Source: Alphaproteobacteria bacterium (GTDB lineage Bacteria; Pseudomonadota; Alphaproteobacteria; RF32; CAG-239). Taken from it: 64,000 nt of DNA. Below are positions 3,838 through 62,250 of this stretch, one piece after another; positions within the stretch are counted from its first letter, which is position 1; the number at the start of each line of letters is the position of its first letter. The position numbers were made by a program, and so were the translations under genes. Location: contig SUUR01000003.1 in assembly GCA_015062435.1 (NCBI GenBank), positions 8,184-72,183 of the forward strand, written 5' to 3'. The notes under the pieces are model-generated. The model was not told the DNA's origin. It made no database searches and was given only the letters and a program-made list of their open reading frames with translations.

Positions 3838-4677
3838 ATGGACGATACAGTACTTTTTAGTGTTATGATTTTAGGCGGAATAGCAATTGTATCCGCCATA
3901 ATTTTATATTGGGTTTCTCGCAAATTTGCAGTTGATGAAGATATTAAAGTTACGGAAATAGAATCTGTTCTGCCTCAGGCTAACTGTGGAGGCTGTTCTT
4001 ATGCCGGCTGTCATGATTTTGCAACGGCTTGTGCCAACGCAGATGAAAGTAAATTTTCCACATTGTTTTGTCCGGTAGGGGGGCAAACAGTGATGGATCA
4101 AGTTGCATCAATCAAAGGTTTTGCCAAAGTTGAAAAACAACCAACTTCAGCGGTATTACGTTGCAACGGTACTTGTCAAAACGCTCCTCAAAAAGTTTTA
4201 TATGATGGTATATGCAGTTGTCGCATTGCAGCCAGAATTTCAAGCGGACAAACAGGTTGCCCCAATGGTTGTTTGCGTCTTGGTGATTGTATAAAAGTAT
4301 GTAAATTCGGAGCATTAAGTCTTGACAATCAAACCGGAATGCCGGTTGTTGATCATGAAAAATGTACATCTTGCGGAGCTTGCGTCAAAATGTGTCCGAG
4401 AGGATTATTTGAAATTCGCACCAAAGGTAATAACGGAGAAATGGTATATGTTGCATGCCGTAACACTCAAAAAGGCGCCCAAGCCCGCAAAAACTGTAAA
4501 GTCGCATGTATTGCTTGTCAAAAATGTGCTAAAATTAATTCTGAAATAACAATTCAAAACAATCTTTCTTATATTCCGGATTCGGTTTCAGCTGAACAAT
4601 TCGGAAAAGAATTAAGCCAAGCATGCCCGACCGGAGCAATAAACTACTACTGCAAAAAAGAGGAAACCAATGTGTAA
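3838..4677 (+). CDS. rnfB: Rnf electron transport complex subunit B
   Basis: 279 aa. N-terminal TM helix, CGGCSYAGC cluster and several CxxCxxCxxxCP ferredoxin motifs. Confidence 0.9.
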   Translation: MDDTVLFSVMILGGIAIVSAIILYWVSRKFAVDEDIKVTEIESVLPQANCGGCSYAGCHDFATACANADESKFSTLFCPVGGQTVMDQVASIKGFAKVEKQPTSAVLRCNGTCQNAPQKVLYDGICSCRIAARISSGQTGCPNGCLRLGDCIKVCKFGALSLDNQTGMPVVDHEKCTSCGACVKMCPRGLFEIRTKGNNGEMVYVACRNTQKGAQARKNCKVACIACQKCAKINSEITIQNNLSYIPDSVSAEQFGKELSQACPTGAINYYCKKEETNV

Positions 4678-58144: not shown

Positions 58145-58308
58145 TTTTGCCTCCACAAAAACTCCTAACTCTATATATTCTACCATAATATATATTTTTT
58201 TCAATATCAAATCACATAATCTGACACAACAAATTCCGTCCACCGGCTTCAATAATTATTTTACGCTTTTCAGAACTTATGTTATCATAATTGTTGGGTA
58301 ATAAAAAT

Positions 58309-58703
58309 GTGCCGCTCATGCATTTGTATGTACAAGTCATGTCCCATGTTTATCCGCTTGTCCGTATAAACTAATAGCGGCACCTTTAATGACCACGTCC
58401 GACACCTCTAACTATCATTGTCCGACTTGTTCGGACAACTTGAGGAAATTTAAGCGAGATACTCCCCTCACACCGGAGTATGACAGGAAAGTAGAGCCGA
58501 AGCATGACCATTAAGGGAAGGAGCCTTATTTCTACCCTCTTAAAGGAGGAGGATTGTACCCTATATGGGAGAGGATTCTACCCTTATTTTCCTCCCCATT
58601 GATGGGGGAGGATTAAGGTGGGGGTGAGGAATACCGCCAATTGTCATGTTGAGCGAAGTCGAAACATCTCATGAGATTCTTCGACAAGCTCAGAATGACA
58701 ATT
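58309..58703. repeat. Cluster of short GC-rich palindromes and degenerate tandem units in a non-coding region
   Basis: Palindromes and inverted repeats: GTGCCGCT (58309-16) with AGCGGCAC (58376-83); TTGTCCGA/TCGGACAA (58418-38); TACTCC/GGAGTA (58460-80); CCTCCCCA/TGGGGGAGG (58591-611); a 65-nt near-perfect palindrome (58639-58703). The GGAGGATT-nTACCCT units are repeated about three times across 58515-58630. Confidence 0.7.
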
Positions 58704-59026
58704 TAGAAATTTTGAAAACTATCGCTTGCGTGTTAGAATTTTATGTGCTTAATTTATTAAATAACAGGTCGAACTGATGATTAATATTTTTTATAATTTT
58801 TTGCCTTTGCCCCACATTTTGACGATGAACCAGAGCTTATCGAGATGAATGCGGATGTTATTTTTCTTGTTGTGATATCATAAATGACAACCCCACTTGT
58901 GAAACATGTCCCAATGAGCTCAAACTCGACATCTGTCCCAATAATCCTTACTGTTCATGTGTAGGCGAACTGGAATAAACTAAATCTATATTCAAGCTCA
59001 AACCTTCCTCCATATCAACAAGAAAA

Positions 59027-59058
59027 GACCTTAGGTTTTATCCTAAGGCCTTTTTTTT
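59027..59058. terminator. Hairpin terminator, the presumed native terminator of tRNA-Val, now separated from it by the IS insertion
   Basis: CCTTAGG (59029-35) pairs with CCTAAGG (59042-48). T8 lies on the plus side and TCTTTTCTT on the minus side. Confidence 0.65.
59051..59058. repeat. Target-site duplication, left copy (TTTTTTTT)
   Basis: Exactly 8 T immediately outside the left IR, identical to 62164-62171. Confidence 0.7.
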
Positions 59059-59073
59059 GGGACTTATATACAA
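59059..59073. repeat. Terminal inverted repeat distal to the transposase: GGGACTTATATACAA
   Basis: Exact reverse complement of 62149-62163. Confidence 0.85.
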
Positions 59074-59097
59074 AACTACCCAAAAGGGAGGTTCTAA

Positions 59098-59325
59098 ATG
59101 ATACGCTTCCTTGAAAATATACTATTTAAGATTGCCGCCTATGTTTTATTTCGGCAGATTATCGCGTTTAATAAAAAATGGACAGGAAAGACCGATAATA
59201 TGCACGGCAAATATGCCTGTGATATTAACGGACAACCCTATGTTATGAGCTATACGCTAGAAAAAGGCGAAAAAATCACCTTTGAAGATTTAGAGCGTAT
59301 AACGATGACAAGAATGAGTTCTTAA
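59098..59325 (+). CDS. Hypothetical small protein with a hydrophobic N-terminal helix
   Basis: 75 aa with a strong SD (AAGGGAGG, 7 nt upstream). Starts 25 nt inside the IS end. Its 3' end overlaps the convergent KTSC-like gene by 36 nt. Confidence 0.5.
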   Translation: MIRFLENILFKIAAYVLFRQIIAFNKKWTGKTDNMHGKYACDINGQPYVMSYTLEKGEKITFEDLERITMTRMSS

Positions 59326-59508
59326 TATGTTTATTATTCTTTCGTGTGACGGGTCTTTTTGTAGCTTAAGGAATGTTTCTTCGCTTACATCAAAGACCAA
59401 TAGATAGCCTCCACCGTTTCTGAACCATACGATAAGTTCATTTCCAGGTTGGTATTCAGTATCAGCATATATAGGACTGTCAACCTCTACTGTATTATCT
59501 ATTATCAT
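59290..59508 (-). CDS. KTSC-domain-like small protein
   Basis: 72 aa. ...YQPGNELIVWFRNGGGYLLVFDVSEETFLKLQKDPS fits the KTSC pattern (x-L-x-V-x-F-x-NG-x-Y-x-Y-x-V). ATGA overlap with the methyltransferase stop. Confidence 0.5.
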   Translation of the reverse strand: MIIDNTVEVDSPIYADTEYQPGNELIVWFRNGGGYLLVFDVSEETFLKLQKDPSHERIINILRTHSCHRYTL

Positions 59509-61001
59509 TCCTTATGTACTCCGCCATTAACGACAAGATGAATTACTTCTATTGACGCTATGCCGTCGCGGTCAACGCCGCGGACGGCTATGTCATATTT
59601 TCCTGTTTTTAGAATGATTTTCTGTATTCCGTCATTATTACGCAAAACCTCGGCGGCAAAACCTTTTTTTGCGTCATAATCCCAGTCCCATTGCCAAAGC
59701 TCTATATCGTCGCCTGTAGCCTTAAAGATAACTTCCTTATCCCCTTTGTCGCCAACTTCTTTCCAATCAAACGACAATGAAATACGCGGCGGCATACCGA
59801 TTGGAATAATTTCATCAACGCGAACAAGAGTTATTTCAAAATCTTCTTCTCTTTTTAGTCGCGCGACTTCTTCAACAGCTCCGCGTCCGAAAGAAAAAGC
59901 GATAATATAACCGCGTTTGCATTGTTTGTTAAAGCGTGACATAGCCGATTTAAAATTATCAATTACATTTCGACCGATATTATCGCTTCGCTTTACCTGA
60001 ATCGGGAAAGACGCTCGTCCTTCATGCAATAAACCGTCAATACCGCCGTCACCGACTTGTTTTGTATGGGATTCGCCGCCATACTGTTCAACAATAAAGC
60101 GTTCAAACTGAAAAGGCGGGGCGTTTCTGATTGTTTCATAATCATATTTCGGCGTTTCAACACTAAAAGTTGGACGAAACAAGTCATTTTCTAACCTCGC
60201 CCGCGTAACAGCGATAGCGTGGACAGACTGATCAATGCCGATAAAATGGCGTTTAAGATTGTGCGCCGCTACAAGAGTCGTTCCGCCGCCACAAAATGCG
60301 TCCAAAACAATGTCACCTTCGTTTGAACAGGCTTTTATTATCCGCTCTAATAAAGCAAGCGGCTTTTGTGTCGGATAGCCAATACGTTCAGGACTATTTG
60401 CGTTTAAAACATTTATCTCCCACCAATCTTCTGGTATTTTTCCAAGAGGATTTGGTTTGTATACTTTATTCGTTCCTTTATGTCGTCCCCACATTGCATC
60501 GTCTTTTCGACCGACACCTTCTGCTCTATAAGCTATTCTAACAGCGTCAGCATTAAAAGTATGTTCGTTACTTTTTCTGTAAAAGAAAATTGTATCATGT
60601 CTTCTACCAAAAGCAGAACGTGGGGCGCTTCCTCCTCTATAACACCAAGCTATCTCATTGACAAATAAAGGTTTACCCCCCCCCCGCACAGGTTGTAATT
60701 TGTCAAGAATATGCACGCGTATGTATGCGTTAGCGTGCCAGTCGCAATGTACAAAAAGAGAGCCTGTCGGTTTTAAGACGCGCCAGATTTCATCTATCCT
60801 TTCTTTCAACCAACCTATGTAATGTTCCATACCGCCAGCCCAACGGTCTGTAAAACTTCTGACTTCGCCACTATCTCCCCAAATTACTTCATAATTACGG
60901 TTACTAAAAAAGGGTGGGTCGATATAACATAAATCAACGCTTTCACTAGGAATTGATTTTAATACTTGTAGATTATCCCCTAATATCAATCTGTTTTGCA
61001 T
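59505..61001 (-). CDS. Beta-class N6-adenine/N4-cytosine DNA methyltransferase fused to an Mrr-like (PD-(D/E)xK) restriction-endonuclease-fold domain and a C-terminal PKD-like domain
   Basis: 498 aa. Methyltransferase motifs: IV DPPF (aa 28-31), TQKP (aa 211-214), I FCGGGTT (aa 236-242). Nuclease fold: FERFIVE...GDGGIDG...IQVK (aa ~299-337). PKD-like: KEVIFKATGDDIELWQWDWDYD...YDIAVRGVDRDG (aa ~421-480). Confidence 0.8.
   Translation of the reverse strand: MQNRLILGDNLQVLKSIPSESVDLCYIDPPFFSNRNYEVIWGDSGEVRSFTDRWAGGMEHYIGWLKERIDEIWRVLKPTGSLFVHCDWHANAYIRVHILDKLQPVRGGGKPLFVNEIAWCYRGGSAPRSAFGRRHDTIFFYRKSNEHTFNADAVRIAYRAEGVGRKDDAMWGRHKGTNKVYKPNPLGKIPEDWWEINVLNANSPERIGYPTQKPLALLERIIKACSNEGDIVLDAFCGGGTTLVAAHNLKRHFIGIDQSVHAIAVTRARLENDLFRPTFSVETPKYDYETIRNAPPFQFERFIVEQYGGESHTKQVGDGGIDGLLHEGRASFPIQVKRSDNIGRNVIDNFKSAMSRFNKQCKRGYIIAFSFGRGAVEEVARLKREEDFEITLVRVDEIIPIGMPPRISLSFDWKEVGDKGDKEVIFKATGDDIELWQWDWDYDAKKGFAAEVLRNNDGIQKIILKTGKYDIAVRGVDRDGIASIEVIHLVVNGGVHKE
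60676..60685 (-). repeat. Homopolymeric G10 tract (C10 on the plus strand) inside the methyltransferase coding sequence
   Basis: Read directly. It encodes R-G-G-G (aa 106-109), is currently in frame, and is the only run of this kind I saw in the window. Confidence 0.9.
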
Positions 61002-61150
61002 TCTTCATTACCTTTGTTGTTTTCAATAGCGGGTTTAGAAACGGAAGCGGGCTTGTCGTTATCCGCTTTTGGCTTTGGCTGAATAAGAGCCATAGCCACT
61101 TCTTCCATACTTGCGTTTATTGGTTCAATAAGTTTTGCCTGTCTTGCCAT
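60986..61150 (-). CDS. Small hypothetical protein (54 aa) between the transposase and the methyltransferase
   Basis: MARQAKLIEPINASMEEVAMAL..., with SD AAGGA 9 nt upstream. Overlaps the tnp 3' end by 26 nt and the methyltransferase start by 16 nt. Confidence 0.4.
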   Translation of the reverse strand: MARQAKLIEPINASMEEVAMALIQPKPKADNDKPASVSKPAIENNKGNEECKTD

Positions 61151-62048
61151 GTGTGAGTTCCTTATATGATAAATGCTTGTTATAACCGCCCGTAACGGCT
61201 GAACGGACACGTTCCAGAGGGGAAAGGGTACGCATATTATGACGACTTGCAAATTCGTTTACATAACGCTGTAAATGCTTTTCGCTCCACTTATGATAAA
61301 TGCCATAATAACCACGTTTCAAAATAGCCCAGAAACTTTCTATGCCGTTTGTATATACTTTTTCACGAACATATTCACCTACGCCGTGATTAACCTTTTG
61401 ATGATTAAATTCTTTCAGTCCTTTATATCCGCCGAACTGATCTGTATAAACGTTCGCGCCAATCTTTACGTTTGCGCGGATTGTCGCAGTTAAAATACGA
61501 CTATTTGTATTTTCGACAGCGAAAGCCTTGACAGCTCCGTCACGTTCTTTTAAGCCGACAACGGGAGCTTTACCGACAGCGCCACGTCCAGAACGCAATT
61601 TTTTATCGCTATGTTTGTTCTTTTCGCTTCCGCCTATATACGTTTCATCAACTTCGACAGTTCCCGATAATTTGTCAGTATATTGCAACCATGATTCGCG
61701 AATACGGTGGGCTAAAAACCATGCTGTTTTTTGCGTACAATTCAGGTATTCAGCTAACTGAATTGAAGAAACGCCTTTTTTAGAATTAACAAGAATATAA
61801 ATAGCAAGAAGCCATTTTTGCAAAGGAAGTTTACTATCTTCAAGCATAGTTCCTACACGAACAGAAAAATGTTTACGGCATTTCTTGCAACGATAAGGCA
61901 TAGGCTTGCCGCATTTTGAAACATGAATGCTACCGCAATACGGGCAAACAACGCCGTTTTTCCAACGCAAATTTTCAAAAAACTTTGCCGCATCTTCTTC
62001 TGTCGGGTATTTTTGAAAAAAATCTATCAGACTAAACTTATCAGACAT
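61125..62048 (-). CDS. IS1595-family transposase (Zn-ribbon plus ISXO2-like DDE domain)
   Basis: 307 aa from the ATG at 62048 (SD AAGGAAAGG). Zn ribbon CPYCG...CKKCRKHF, then VEVDETYIGG, YTDQFGGY and TNGIESFWAILKRG. Confidence 0.9.
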   Translation of the reverse strand: MSDKFSLIDFFQKYPTEEDAAKFFENLRWKNGVVCPYCGSIHVSKCGKPMPYRCKKCRKHFSVRVGTMLEDSKLPLQKWLLAIYILVNSKKGVSSIQLAEYLNCTQKTAWFLAHRIRESWLQYTDKLSGTVEVDETYIGGSEKNKHSDKKLRSGRGAVGKAPVVGLKERDGAVKAFAVENTNSRILTATIRANVKIGANVYTDQFGGYKGLKEFNHQKVNHGVGEYVREKVYTNGIESFWAILKRGYYGIYHKWSEKHLQRYVNEFASRHNMRTLSPLERVRSAVTGGYNKHLSYKELTHGKTGKTY

Positions 62049-62148
62049 TGGCCTTTCCTTTCTTGCTTTTAGCAATATAGGCCGAATCTTATGGCTAGTC
62101 AAGTATTTTTATTATTTTCAATAATTGCTTGCGCTGTTCTGGCTAGCG

Positions 62149-62163
62149 TTGTATATAAGTCCC
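62149..62163. repeat. Terminal inverted repeat proximal to the transposase: TTGTATATAAGTCCC
   Basis: Exact reverse complement of 59059-59073. Confidence 0.85.
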
Positions 62164-62171
62164 TTTTTTTT
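62164..62171. repeat. Target-site duplication, right copy (TTTTTTTT)
   Basis: Exactly 8 T immediately outside the right IR, 3 nt from the tRNA-Val 3' end. Confidence 0.7.
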
Positions 62172-62174
62172 AAT

Positions 62175-62250
62175 TGGTGGGCGCTGAGAGGTTCGAACTC
62201 CCGACCCTCTCGGTGTAAACGAGATGCTCTTCCAGCTGAGCTAAGCGCCC
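62175..62250 (-). tRNA. tRNA-Val (anticodon TAC) with encoded CCA
   Basis: 76-nt cloverleaf folded by hand. Acceptor GGGCGCT/AGCGCCC, D stem GCTC/GAGC, anticodon stem TCTCG/CGAGA with loop TTTACAC, and T arm GGGAG-TTCGAAC-CTCTC. Confidence 0.92.

Follow-up and report, generated by a model that had tools for sequence, protein, structure and literature searches.

Does a run of ten guanines (G10) inside a methyltransferase gene of an uncultured gut alphaproteobacterium act as a phase-variable switch, and what kind of gene would such a switch control? The question arises from a stretch of 64,000 nucleotides (nt) of contig SUUR01000003.1 (positions 8,184 to 72,183; GenBank assembly GCA_015062435.1), which we call the window and in whose coordinates all positions are given. 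A preliminary description, made from the sequence alone, had singled out the run as a candidate ON/OFF switch; that reading stands insofar as the tract exists, is unlikely to have arisen by chance, keeps the frame open, and is uninterrupted in relatives, and falls short insofar as only one tract length is seen within each lineage. The run is most likely a genuine hypermutable simple-sequence repeat in the coding region of a methyltransferase that is cargo of an insertion sequence (IS), and we give somewhat better than even credence to its being a slipped-strand ON/OFF switch of this IS-borne adenine methyltransferase, possibly a single-chain restriction-modification (R-M) enzyme. The gene and its tract are the following:

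59505 to 61001, minus strand: methyltransferase gene, 498 amino acids (aa), MBE6452126.1, annotated as "hypothetical protein" (identified by Pfam, PDB profile, Foldseek, and PADLOC)
60676 to 60685, minus strand: G10 homopolymer, candidate slippage switch, codons CGG GGG GGG GGT (R106 G107 G108 G109)

The plus strand reads CCCCCCCCCC at 60676 to 60685, i.e., C10, with G10 on the coding (minus) strand, and the 498-aa gene is the sole long open reading frame (ORF) that spans the tract. Direct reading confirms the position, codons, and residues (aa 106 to 109) first given for the run, as well as the statement that its present length keeps the 498-aa frame open, which corresponds to the ON state. 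The window has a G+C content of 34%, and in a homopolymer census of all 64 kb, no further run of G or C reaches 7 nt, the runner-up being one G6 at position 4078. Under a first-order Markov model, the expected number of runs of at least 10 nt in the window is 0.002 for G and 0.011 for C; the earlier contention that the 64 kb hold no comparable run and that chance is an unlikely cause is borne out by this census and by a Markov expectation of ~0.01. Because GGG accounts for 11.8% of glycine codons and CGG for 4% of arginine codons in 42 host ORFs, the probability of CGG GGG GGG, given the residues R-G-G, is 5.5e-4. Mononucleotide tracts are called phase-variable at a threshold of ≥9 nt (PMC5909438), which the G10 tract, lying inside an ORF, passes, and rates of 1.8 to 13.5e-3 are cited for 9-nt mononucleotide tracts of Campylobacter jejuni (PMC5909438). 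Two other roles for the run were rejected on argument: a G-quadruplex is impossible with one lone G10 run, and no signal supports programmed slippage, ribosomal or transcriptional, which an in-frame state does not require.

Changing the tract length in silico has the consequences expected of a switch. With one G more (G11), the shift creates a TAA that stops translation at once, giving a product of 109 aa; with one G fewer (G9), a stop is reached at codon 117, giving a product of 116 aa. G7 and G13 preserve the 498-aa frame. The preliminary description had predicted truncation at about aa 110 upon a change of one G, in agreement with these values. Neither the G9 nor the G11 product includes the target-recognition domain (TRD), motifs X and I to III, or the Mrr_cat domain, i.e., the parts of the protein that are laid out below:

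60213 to 60938, minus strand: methyltransferase domain, aa 22 to 263 (Pfam N6_N4_Mtase, PF01555, E value of 6e-48, 164 bits versus a cut-off of 26.7)
60909 to 60920, minus strand: motif IV, DPPF, aa 28 to 31 (alignment)
60276 to 60296, minus strand: motif I, FCGGGTT, aa 236 to 242 (alignment)
60387 to 60632, minus strand: hypervariable segment, ~aa 124 to 205, presumed TRD (variable block of the family alignment)
59805 to 60128, minus strand: Mrr_cat (PD-(D/E)xK-like) domain, aa 292 to 399 (Pfam Mrr_cat, PF04471, E value of 2e-9)
59508 to 59789, minus strand: C-terminal all-beta domain, aa 405 to 498 (AlphaFold2 secondary structure, predicted local distance difference test [pLDDT] of ~85 to 93)

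From its sequence, the 498-aa protein is predicted to be a fusion of three parts: a beta-class N6-adenine DNA methyltransferase, a nuclease-like domain of the Mrr type, and a beta domain at the C-terminus. Motif IV precedes motif I, which is the beta-class order, and the two motifs flank the G10 tract at the positions originally given for them; the aspartate of DPPF favors N6-adenine as the putative target. A profile built from 25 homologues matches M.RsrI (4e-34), M.BceJIV, M.MboIIA, and CcrM in the PDB. The AlphaFold model of the protein (pLDDT of 78.6, predicted template-modeling score [pTM] of 0.70) retrieves N6-adenine methyltransferase folds when searched at full length with Foldseek (M.RsrI, 4e-20), the match being confined to the methyltransferase domain, and PADLOC ranks MTase_II (5e-66) first, with MTase_III at 8e-42. 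In the Mrr_cat domain, D322 and Q335-V-K337 are invariant, and E300 is nearly so, among 25 homologues from several phyla, making a functional PD-(D/E)xK-type nuclease plausible. The nuclease-like and methyltransferase domains lie in one chain, and the protein may be a single-chain (Type IIC/IIG-like) R-M enzyme with a putative nuclease activity. A PDB sequence search with the C-terminal 222 aa gave nothing meaningful, and the beta domain (aa 405 to 498) has no Pfam or PDB sequence match. This domain carries a pattern, WQWDWDYD ... IAVRGVDxDG, that recalls PKD/Ig-like domains and is odd for a cytoplasmic DNA methyltransferase.

In the AlphaFold model, the residues encoded by the tract form a loop between helix 88-97 and strand 112-122, with a loop pLDDT of 62, so the tract is predicted to occupy a tolerant, unstructured surface loop. 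Following HCDWHA..ILDK, this loop reads F-G-x-x-N-F in most homologues; the window protein has a 5-aa insertion here, giving QPVRGGGKP. The hypervariable segment begins just 3′ of the tract.

DNA comparison showed a pure G run in the same loop in every close relative that was recovered, and its length differs between lineages:

L003, L004, and L005 (three assemblies, 78% identical at the aa level): in-frame G8
L001 (87% identical at the nt level): out-of-frame G12
L169 and L170 (91% identical at the aa level over the N-terminus): out-of-frame G7
L002 (99.98% identical at the nt level): in-frame G12

Comparing tract length among relatives had been put forward as a check on switching, and its answer is divided: length varies between lineages (G7 OFF, G8 ON, G10 ON, G12 OFF, and G12 ON), and no variant was found within any of them. 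An interrupted tract in orthologues, which had been named as speaking against a switch, is not what these copies display, their runs of G7, G8, and G12 being uninterrupted and two of them out of frame. In L001, a stop ends the N-terminal frame 7 codons past the tract, and the C-terminal 411 aa can be read intact in a second frame; a tract of G11 or G14 would mend the gene. In L169 and L170, G8 or G5 would do so, and the downstream frame is open up to the contig end. A further family, P0122 (7 member sequences), ends in ...ASQGGGIYKSYYMGL. To judge from back-translation by eye, its reading frame appears to shift at a G run in this loop too, and P0122 is likely a third OFF lineage; a search seeded with P0122 returned no close relatives. 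More distant homologues use GGT, GGC, or GGA at the loop (e.g., GGT GGC or GGT ATG GGC), and none of ~160 further loci has a G run there. Scans of metagenomes and genomes for closer relatives returned only homologues of ≤65% identity, none with a G run of ≥7 nt in the loop (one, L123, has a single G6), and a scan of viral contigs and a tblastn search of plasmids yielded no full-length relatives.

The persistence of the run can be set against the divergence of the genes that carry it. Between the window and L003, only 27 of 121 four-fold degenerate sites (22%) are identical, which amounts to saturation, and both copies keep GGG GGG at the loop, with GGG making up 2 of 43 and 7 of 45 glycine codons elsewhere in the two genes. 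Since the run has been kept despite saturated synonymous sites and against each gene's own glycine codon preference, it appears to have been maintained or regenerated; on this comparison, a neutral glycine loop would long since have been interrupted.

The segment that follows the tract behaves differently from its surroundings. To either side of a region that cannot be aligned between them (60383 to 60631 in the window, 1534 to 1770 in L001), the window and L001 share 87% identity, i.e., they show the conserved ends and swapped central region of mod-like alleles, at a flank identity (87%) below the >90% used to define mod groups (PMC5909438). This pattern suggests that the segment after the tract has been exchanged between IS copies by TRD swapping, which would confer different methylation specificities. 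Separately, homology breaks off at this same loop (FGxKNF) in several truncated family members from other organisms (P0172, P0143, P0212, and P0182), and the frame of P0172 apparently shifts within a run of A. Across the family, the loop may be a site where homopolymers or frameshifts recur, or the pattern may reflect selection bias, the search having favored short proteins.

What the preliminary description missed is that the gene is IS-borne. The methyltransferase lies directly downstream of an IS1595-family transposase, in an island that is richer in G+C than its surroundings (0.39 to 0.42 versus ~0.33), and both belong to a complete element:

59059 to 62163: IS1595-family element of 3105 bp (inverted ends of 27 nt, target duplication of 8 bp)
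61125 to 62048, minus strand: transposase, MBE6452127.1, 307 aa from ATG or 325 aa from a TTG at 62102
59059 to 59085: left terminal inverted repeat, 27 nt (GGGACTTATATACAA...)
62137 to 62163: right terminal inverted repeat, 27 nt
59051 to 59058: left target-site duplication, TTTTTTTT (T8), the T-tail of a terminator-like hairpin at 59029 to 59048
62164 to 62171: right target-site duplication, TTTTTTTT, 3 bp from the 3′ end of tRNA-Val
62175 to 62250: tRNA-Val, adjoining the element
60986 to 61150, minus strand: 54-aa ORF, overlapping the transposase end and the methyltransferase start
59290 to 59508, minus strand: 72-aa ORF with weak KTSC similarity; its ATG and the stop codon of the methyltransferase overlap (ATGA)

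The inverted repeats, which match perfectly over the first 15 of their 27 nt, enclose four genes: those for the transposase and methyltransferase and the 54-aa and 72-aa ORFs. Duplication of 8 bp at the target is expected for the IS1595 family, and the element combines it with terminal inverted repeats and a transposase that matches Pfam DDE_Tnp_IS1595 (3e-40), an N-terminal Zn_ribbon_IS1595 (9e-12), and NCBIfam transpos_IS1595 (7e-56). Homologous ends also bound sister elements in unrelated genomic contexts, one of 4320 bp in L003 to L005 with its own 8-bp target-site duplication, ATAAAAAA, and one of 3190 bp in L171 with another, AAATTTTT. The L001 sequence (3232 bp) begins and ends precisely at the terminal repeats, as is typical of a repeat-bounded contig. 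Given the inverted ends, the target-site duplications, and the sister insertions elsewhere, we regard the methyltransferase as cargo of a mobile IS1595-family element. Between transposase and methyltransferase, the elements of the G8 lineage hold a HicA/HicB toxin-antitoxin pair (L003, 5301 to 5906; also L004 and L005), and from the presence of this addiction module it follows that the cargo of the IS is modular.

Both small ORFs within the element are also called as genes at the corresponding positions in L001, L002, and L166 to L168. For the 54-aa ORF, searches of Pfam and PADLOC returned no family match. The 72-aa ORF had been described as a KTSC-like gene translationally coupled to the methyltransferase: the ATGA overlap is real, and the KTSC label rests on a sub-threshold Pfam match (E value of 0.008, 16.3 bits versus a cut-off of 25). 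In the OFF state, this overlapping downstream ORF would probably lose its translational coupling. No res-like ORF occurs between 57.6 and 62.2 kb, and the mod-plus-res pairing of Type III systems is accordingly absent from this interval. A promoter and terminator scan gave counts no higher than those in shuffled sequences, with a TTGACT-17-TATATT arrangement noted at 62102 to 62074, and an Rfam search over the window matched tRNA-Val alone.

Beyond the left end of the element, ~800 bp (58253 to 59058) contain no ORF longer than 43 aa and no Rfam match. This interval includes G-rich direct repeats at 58529 to 58555 and 58588 to 58614 (...GGAGGAGGATT) and a 16-nt inverted repeat (58639 to 58654 and 58688 to 58703), and it may be what is left of a different element, or it may encode an RNA that is not annotated.

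In the mechanism that we favor, slipped-strand mispairing during replication would add or remove one G. At G10 (and likewise at G7 or G13), the 498-aa frame would be kept and the methyltransferase/Mrr-type nuclease-like fusion made (ON); at G9 or G11, an early stop would remove the target-recognition region, the S-adenosylmethionine-binding motifs, and the nuclease-like domain (OFF). We infer, in addition, an appreciable switching rate in the host, the reversibility of switching, and selection for it. The likeliest role of the tract would be ON/OFF control of a mobile modification (possibly R-M) module; control of a host regulon, as in the phasevarion-type switch first proposed, is less likely, since the status of the gene as IS cargo and its conserved Mrr-type nuclease-like domain both point away from a regulator of the host and toward a mobile module, either R-M or selfish.

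Copies from the same lineage bear on whether the tract actually varies. Identical G10 runs and flanks are present in three JGI metagenome assemblies (L166 to L168, 100% identical over 3 to 7.5 kb), and G10 is also present in NCBI protein MBE6452126.1, from the 78-kb contig of an "Alphaproteobacteria bacterium" metagenome-assembled genome (MAG); for this reason, the G10 run is not a one-off assembly artifact. L002 differs from the window by just three mismatches in 14,496 bp (window positions 60686, 60690, and 60693; L002 positions 9425, 9421, and 9418). All three fall within the 8 bp that adjoin the tract on its 5′ side, and each puts a G on the coding strand of L002. These changes amount to R106G and two synonymous substitutions, and they extend the pure run to G12 with the frame unchanged. 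They are either a sequencing artifact beside a homopolymer or a cluster of real mutations, and the edge of the tract is the sole variable spot.

Several observations weigh against switching. No length variation was found within a lineage, either among five or six assemblies of the window strain or among at least three of the G8 lineage, which has one length in three of its six contigs (those shown). For the lineages of the window, L003, and L001, we predicted 18 variants, namely the N-terminal products and C-terminal ORFs of the OFF state and in-frame alleles longer or shorter by 3 nt; exact look-ups found none of them among ~15 billion proteins, a result whose sensitivity is limited, since gene callers may skip a short fragment, as happened with the N-terminal piece of L001. 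The JGI samples may share one source community and may therefore not be independent; the sample identifiers and the accession gave no match in the literature. Each OFF allele is the sole representative of its lineage, and the k-mer coverage of L170 is just 1.66, so a homopolymer read error is possible there. Family copies are often split or truncated without G runs, and OFF copies could therefore be decaying IS cargo. Lastly, the G10 run is the only G/C tract in the 64-kb window.

The alternative that survives these data best, and which we nevertheless consider unlikely, is that the run encodes a stable poly-glycine loop, the relic of an old slippage insertion with no switching role, in a host that is possibly mismatch-repair-proficient; the out-of-frame relatives would then be errors in the sequencing or assembly of homopolymers. 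Such errors are harder to credit when the same G7 occurs in two assemblies (L169 and L170) and when the L001 frameshift falls exactly at the tract with both halves otherwise intact, and a relic would not be expected to remain a pure G run across saturated synonymous divergence, against the gene's glycine codon preference. The constancy of G10 in all window-strain assemblies, the negative look-ups of length variants, the low coverage of L170, and the substitution "noise" beside the tract in L002, which could be a sequencing artifact, all fit a stable loop.

Slightly less probable is a mutational hot spot without adaptive value, in which the tract does slip and the result is the one-way decay of a dispensable IS passenger gene. 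The gene is indeed IS cargo, finished genomes contain many truncated or split members of the family (e.g., P0164 of Beggiatoa and P0216 of Chromatium), and the OFF alleles are known only from lone representatives of their lineages. One-way decay would not, however, leave the run uninterrupted over saturating divergence, and the OFF copies keep both halves open and conserved, without secondary lesions, in a setting where the transposase and IS ends are intact. An assembly or polishing artifact, with no G10 in the real genome, is effectively refuted: homopolymers are error-prone, and L002 differs from the window only beside the tract, but G10 is identical in the window, L166, L167, L168, and the NCBI MAG, and the homologous G runs of other lineages come from independent assemblies (ENA and Logan).

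Returning to a slipped-strand switch, the nearest precedents share individual features with the window gene. Cj0031 of C. jejuni NCTC11168 is a phase-variable Type IIG R-M enzyme of 1243 aa that is ON at G9 and OFF at G10, for which switching and phage restriction have been proven experimentally and whose target-recognition domain varies between strains (PMC4889913). Like the window gene, it has a poly-G tract inside the ORF of a single polypeptide with methyltransferase and nuclease modules, and one-G changes switch it. The window protein, whose activity and switching are predictions, differs in its size (498 aa), its beta class, the position of Mrr_cat C-terminal to the methyltransferase, and its location on an IS. 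Type IIG enzymes typically belong to the gamma class and have their nuclease at the N-terminus, whereas the architecture in the window is that of a beta-class methyltransferase with a C-terminal nuclease-like domain. The Type III mod phasevarions (ModA, ModH, ModJ, ModL, ModU, and others) carry simple-sequence repeats, including G[n], in their ORFs (PMC5909438). Their products, like that of the window gene, are N6-adenine methyltransferases of the same Pfam family (Mod structures 4zcf, 6k0w, and 7dsu are matched by the profile), with conserved ends and a variable central TRD, and the window satisfies the tract criterion of at least 9 nt. In contrast to mod genes, the window gene has no res partner in or beside the element, is assigned to Type II by PADLOC, is fused to Mrr_cat, and is IS-borne. 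The window protein belongs to neither the Cj0031 nor the Type III mod family.

Its individual modules have counterparts elsewhere. M.RsrI, M.BceJIV, M.MboIIA, and CcrM share the catalytic-domain fold and motifs, but they have no counterpart of the Mrr_cat and beta-domain extension, and the loop with the G run is an insertion in the window protein relative to the family consensus. The C-terminal half of the window protein matches the same Pfam domain as Escherichia coli Mrr and conserves the D...QxK signature; Mrr, however, is a stand-alone Type IV enzyme that cuts methylated DNA, whereas the predicted domain in the window is fused behind a methyltransferase. As for the vehicle, Siguier et al. 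reportedly described in 2009 IS1595-family elements that carry passenger genes, grouped as the ISNwi1+ and ISPna2+ types, and these resemble the element in the window in having a zinc-ribbon transposase, short inverted repeats, an 8-bp duplication, and non-transposition genes between the ends. The cargo in the window differs in being a methyltransferase/nuclease-like fusion with a simple-sequence repeat, and in the literature on IS1595 passenger genes we found no account of methyltransferase cargo.

Phase-variable methyltransferases (Type I, III, and IIG) have been documented mainly in cultured, host-adapted pathogens. The locus described here would extend the poly-G device to three settings that are new for it: an alphaproteobacterium of the gut that is uncultured, a family of methyltransferase/Mrr-like fusions without a characterized member, and the cargo of an insertion sequence that, judging from its sister elements, has been inserted in at least three genomic contexts. 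Going further, we consider it quite improbable, and hence speculative, that the IS1595 family carries its own switchable epigenetic/defense module, with an active nuclease and a poly-G toggle, as a "mobile phasevarion" spreading between gut bacteria; were this so, methylation state may control the transposition or maintenance of the element itself. If switching did not occur, the gene would merely encode a methyltransferase with an unusual glycine-rich loop. If switching is true, stochastic heterogeneity of the methylome or of defense would be gained in a single transposition event, and the 3-kb element, with one tract and one enzyme, would offer a simple model. The IS-borne, Mrr-fused architecture is the part most deserving of follow-up.

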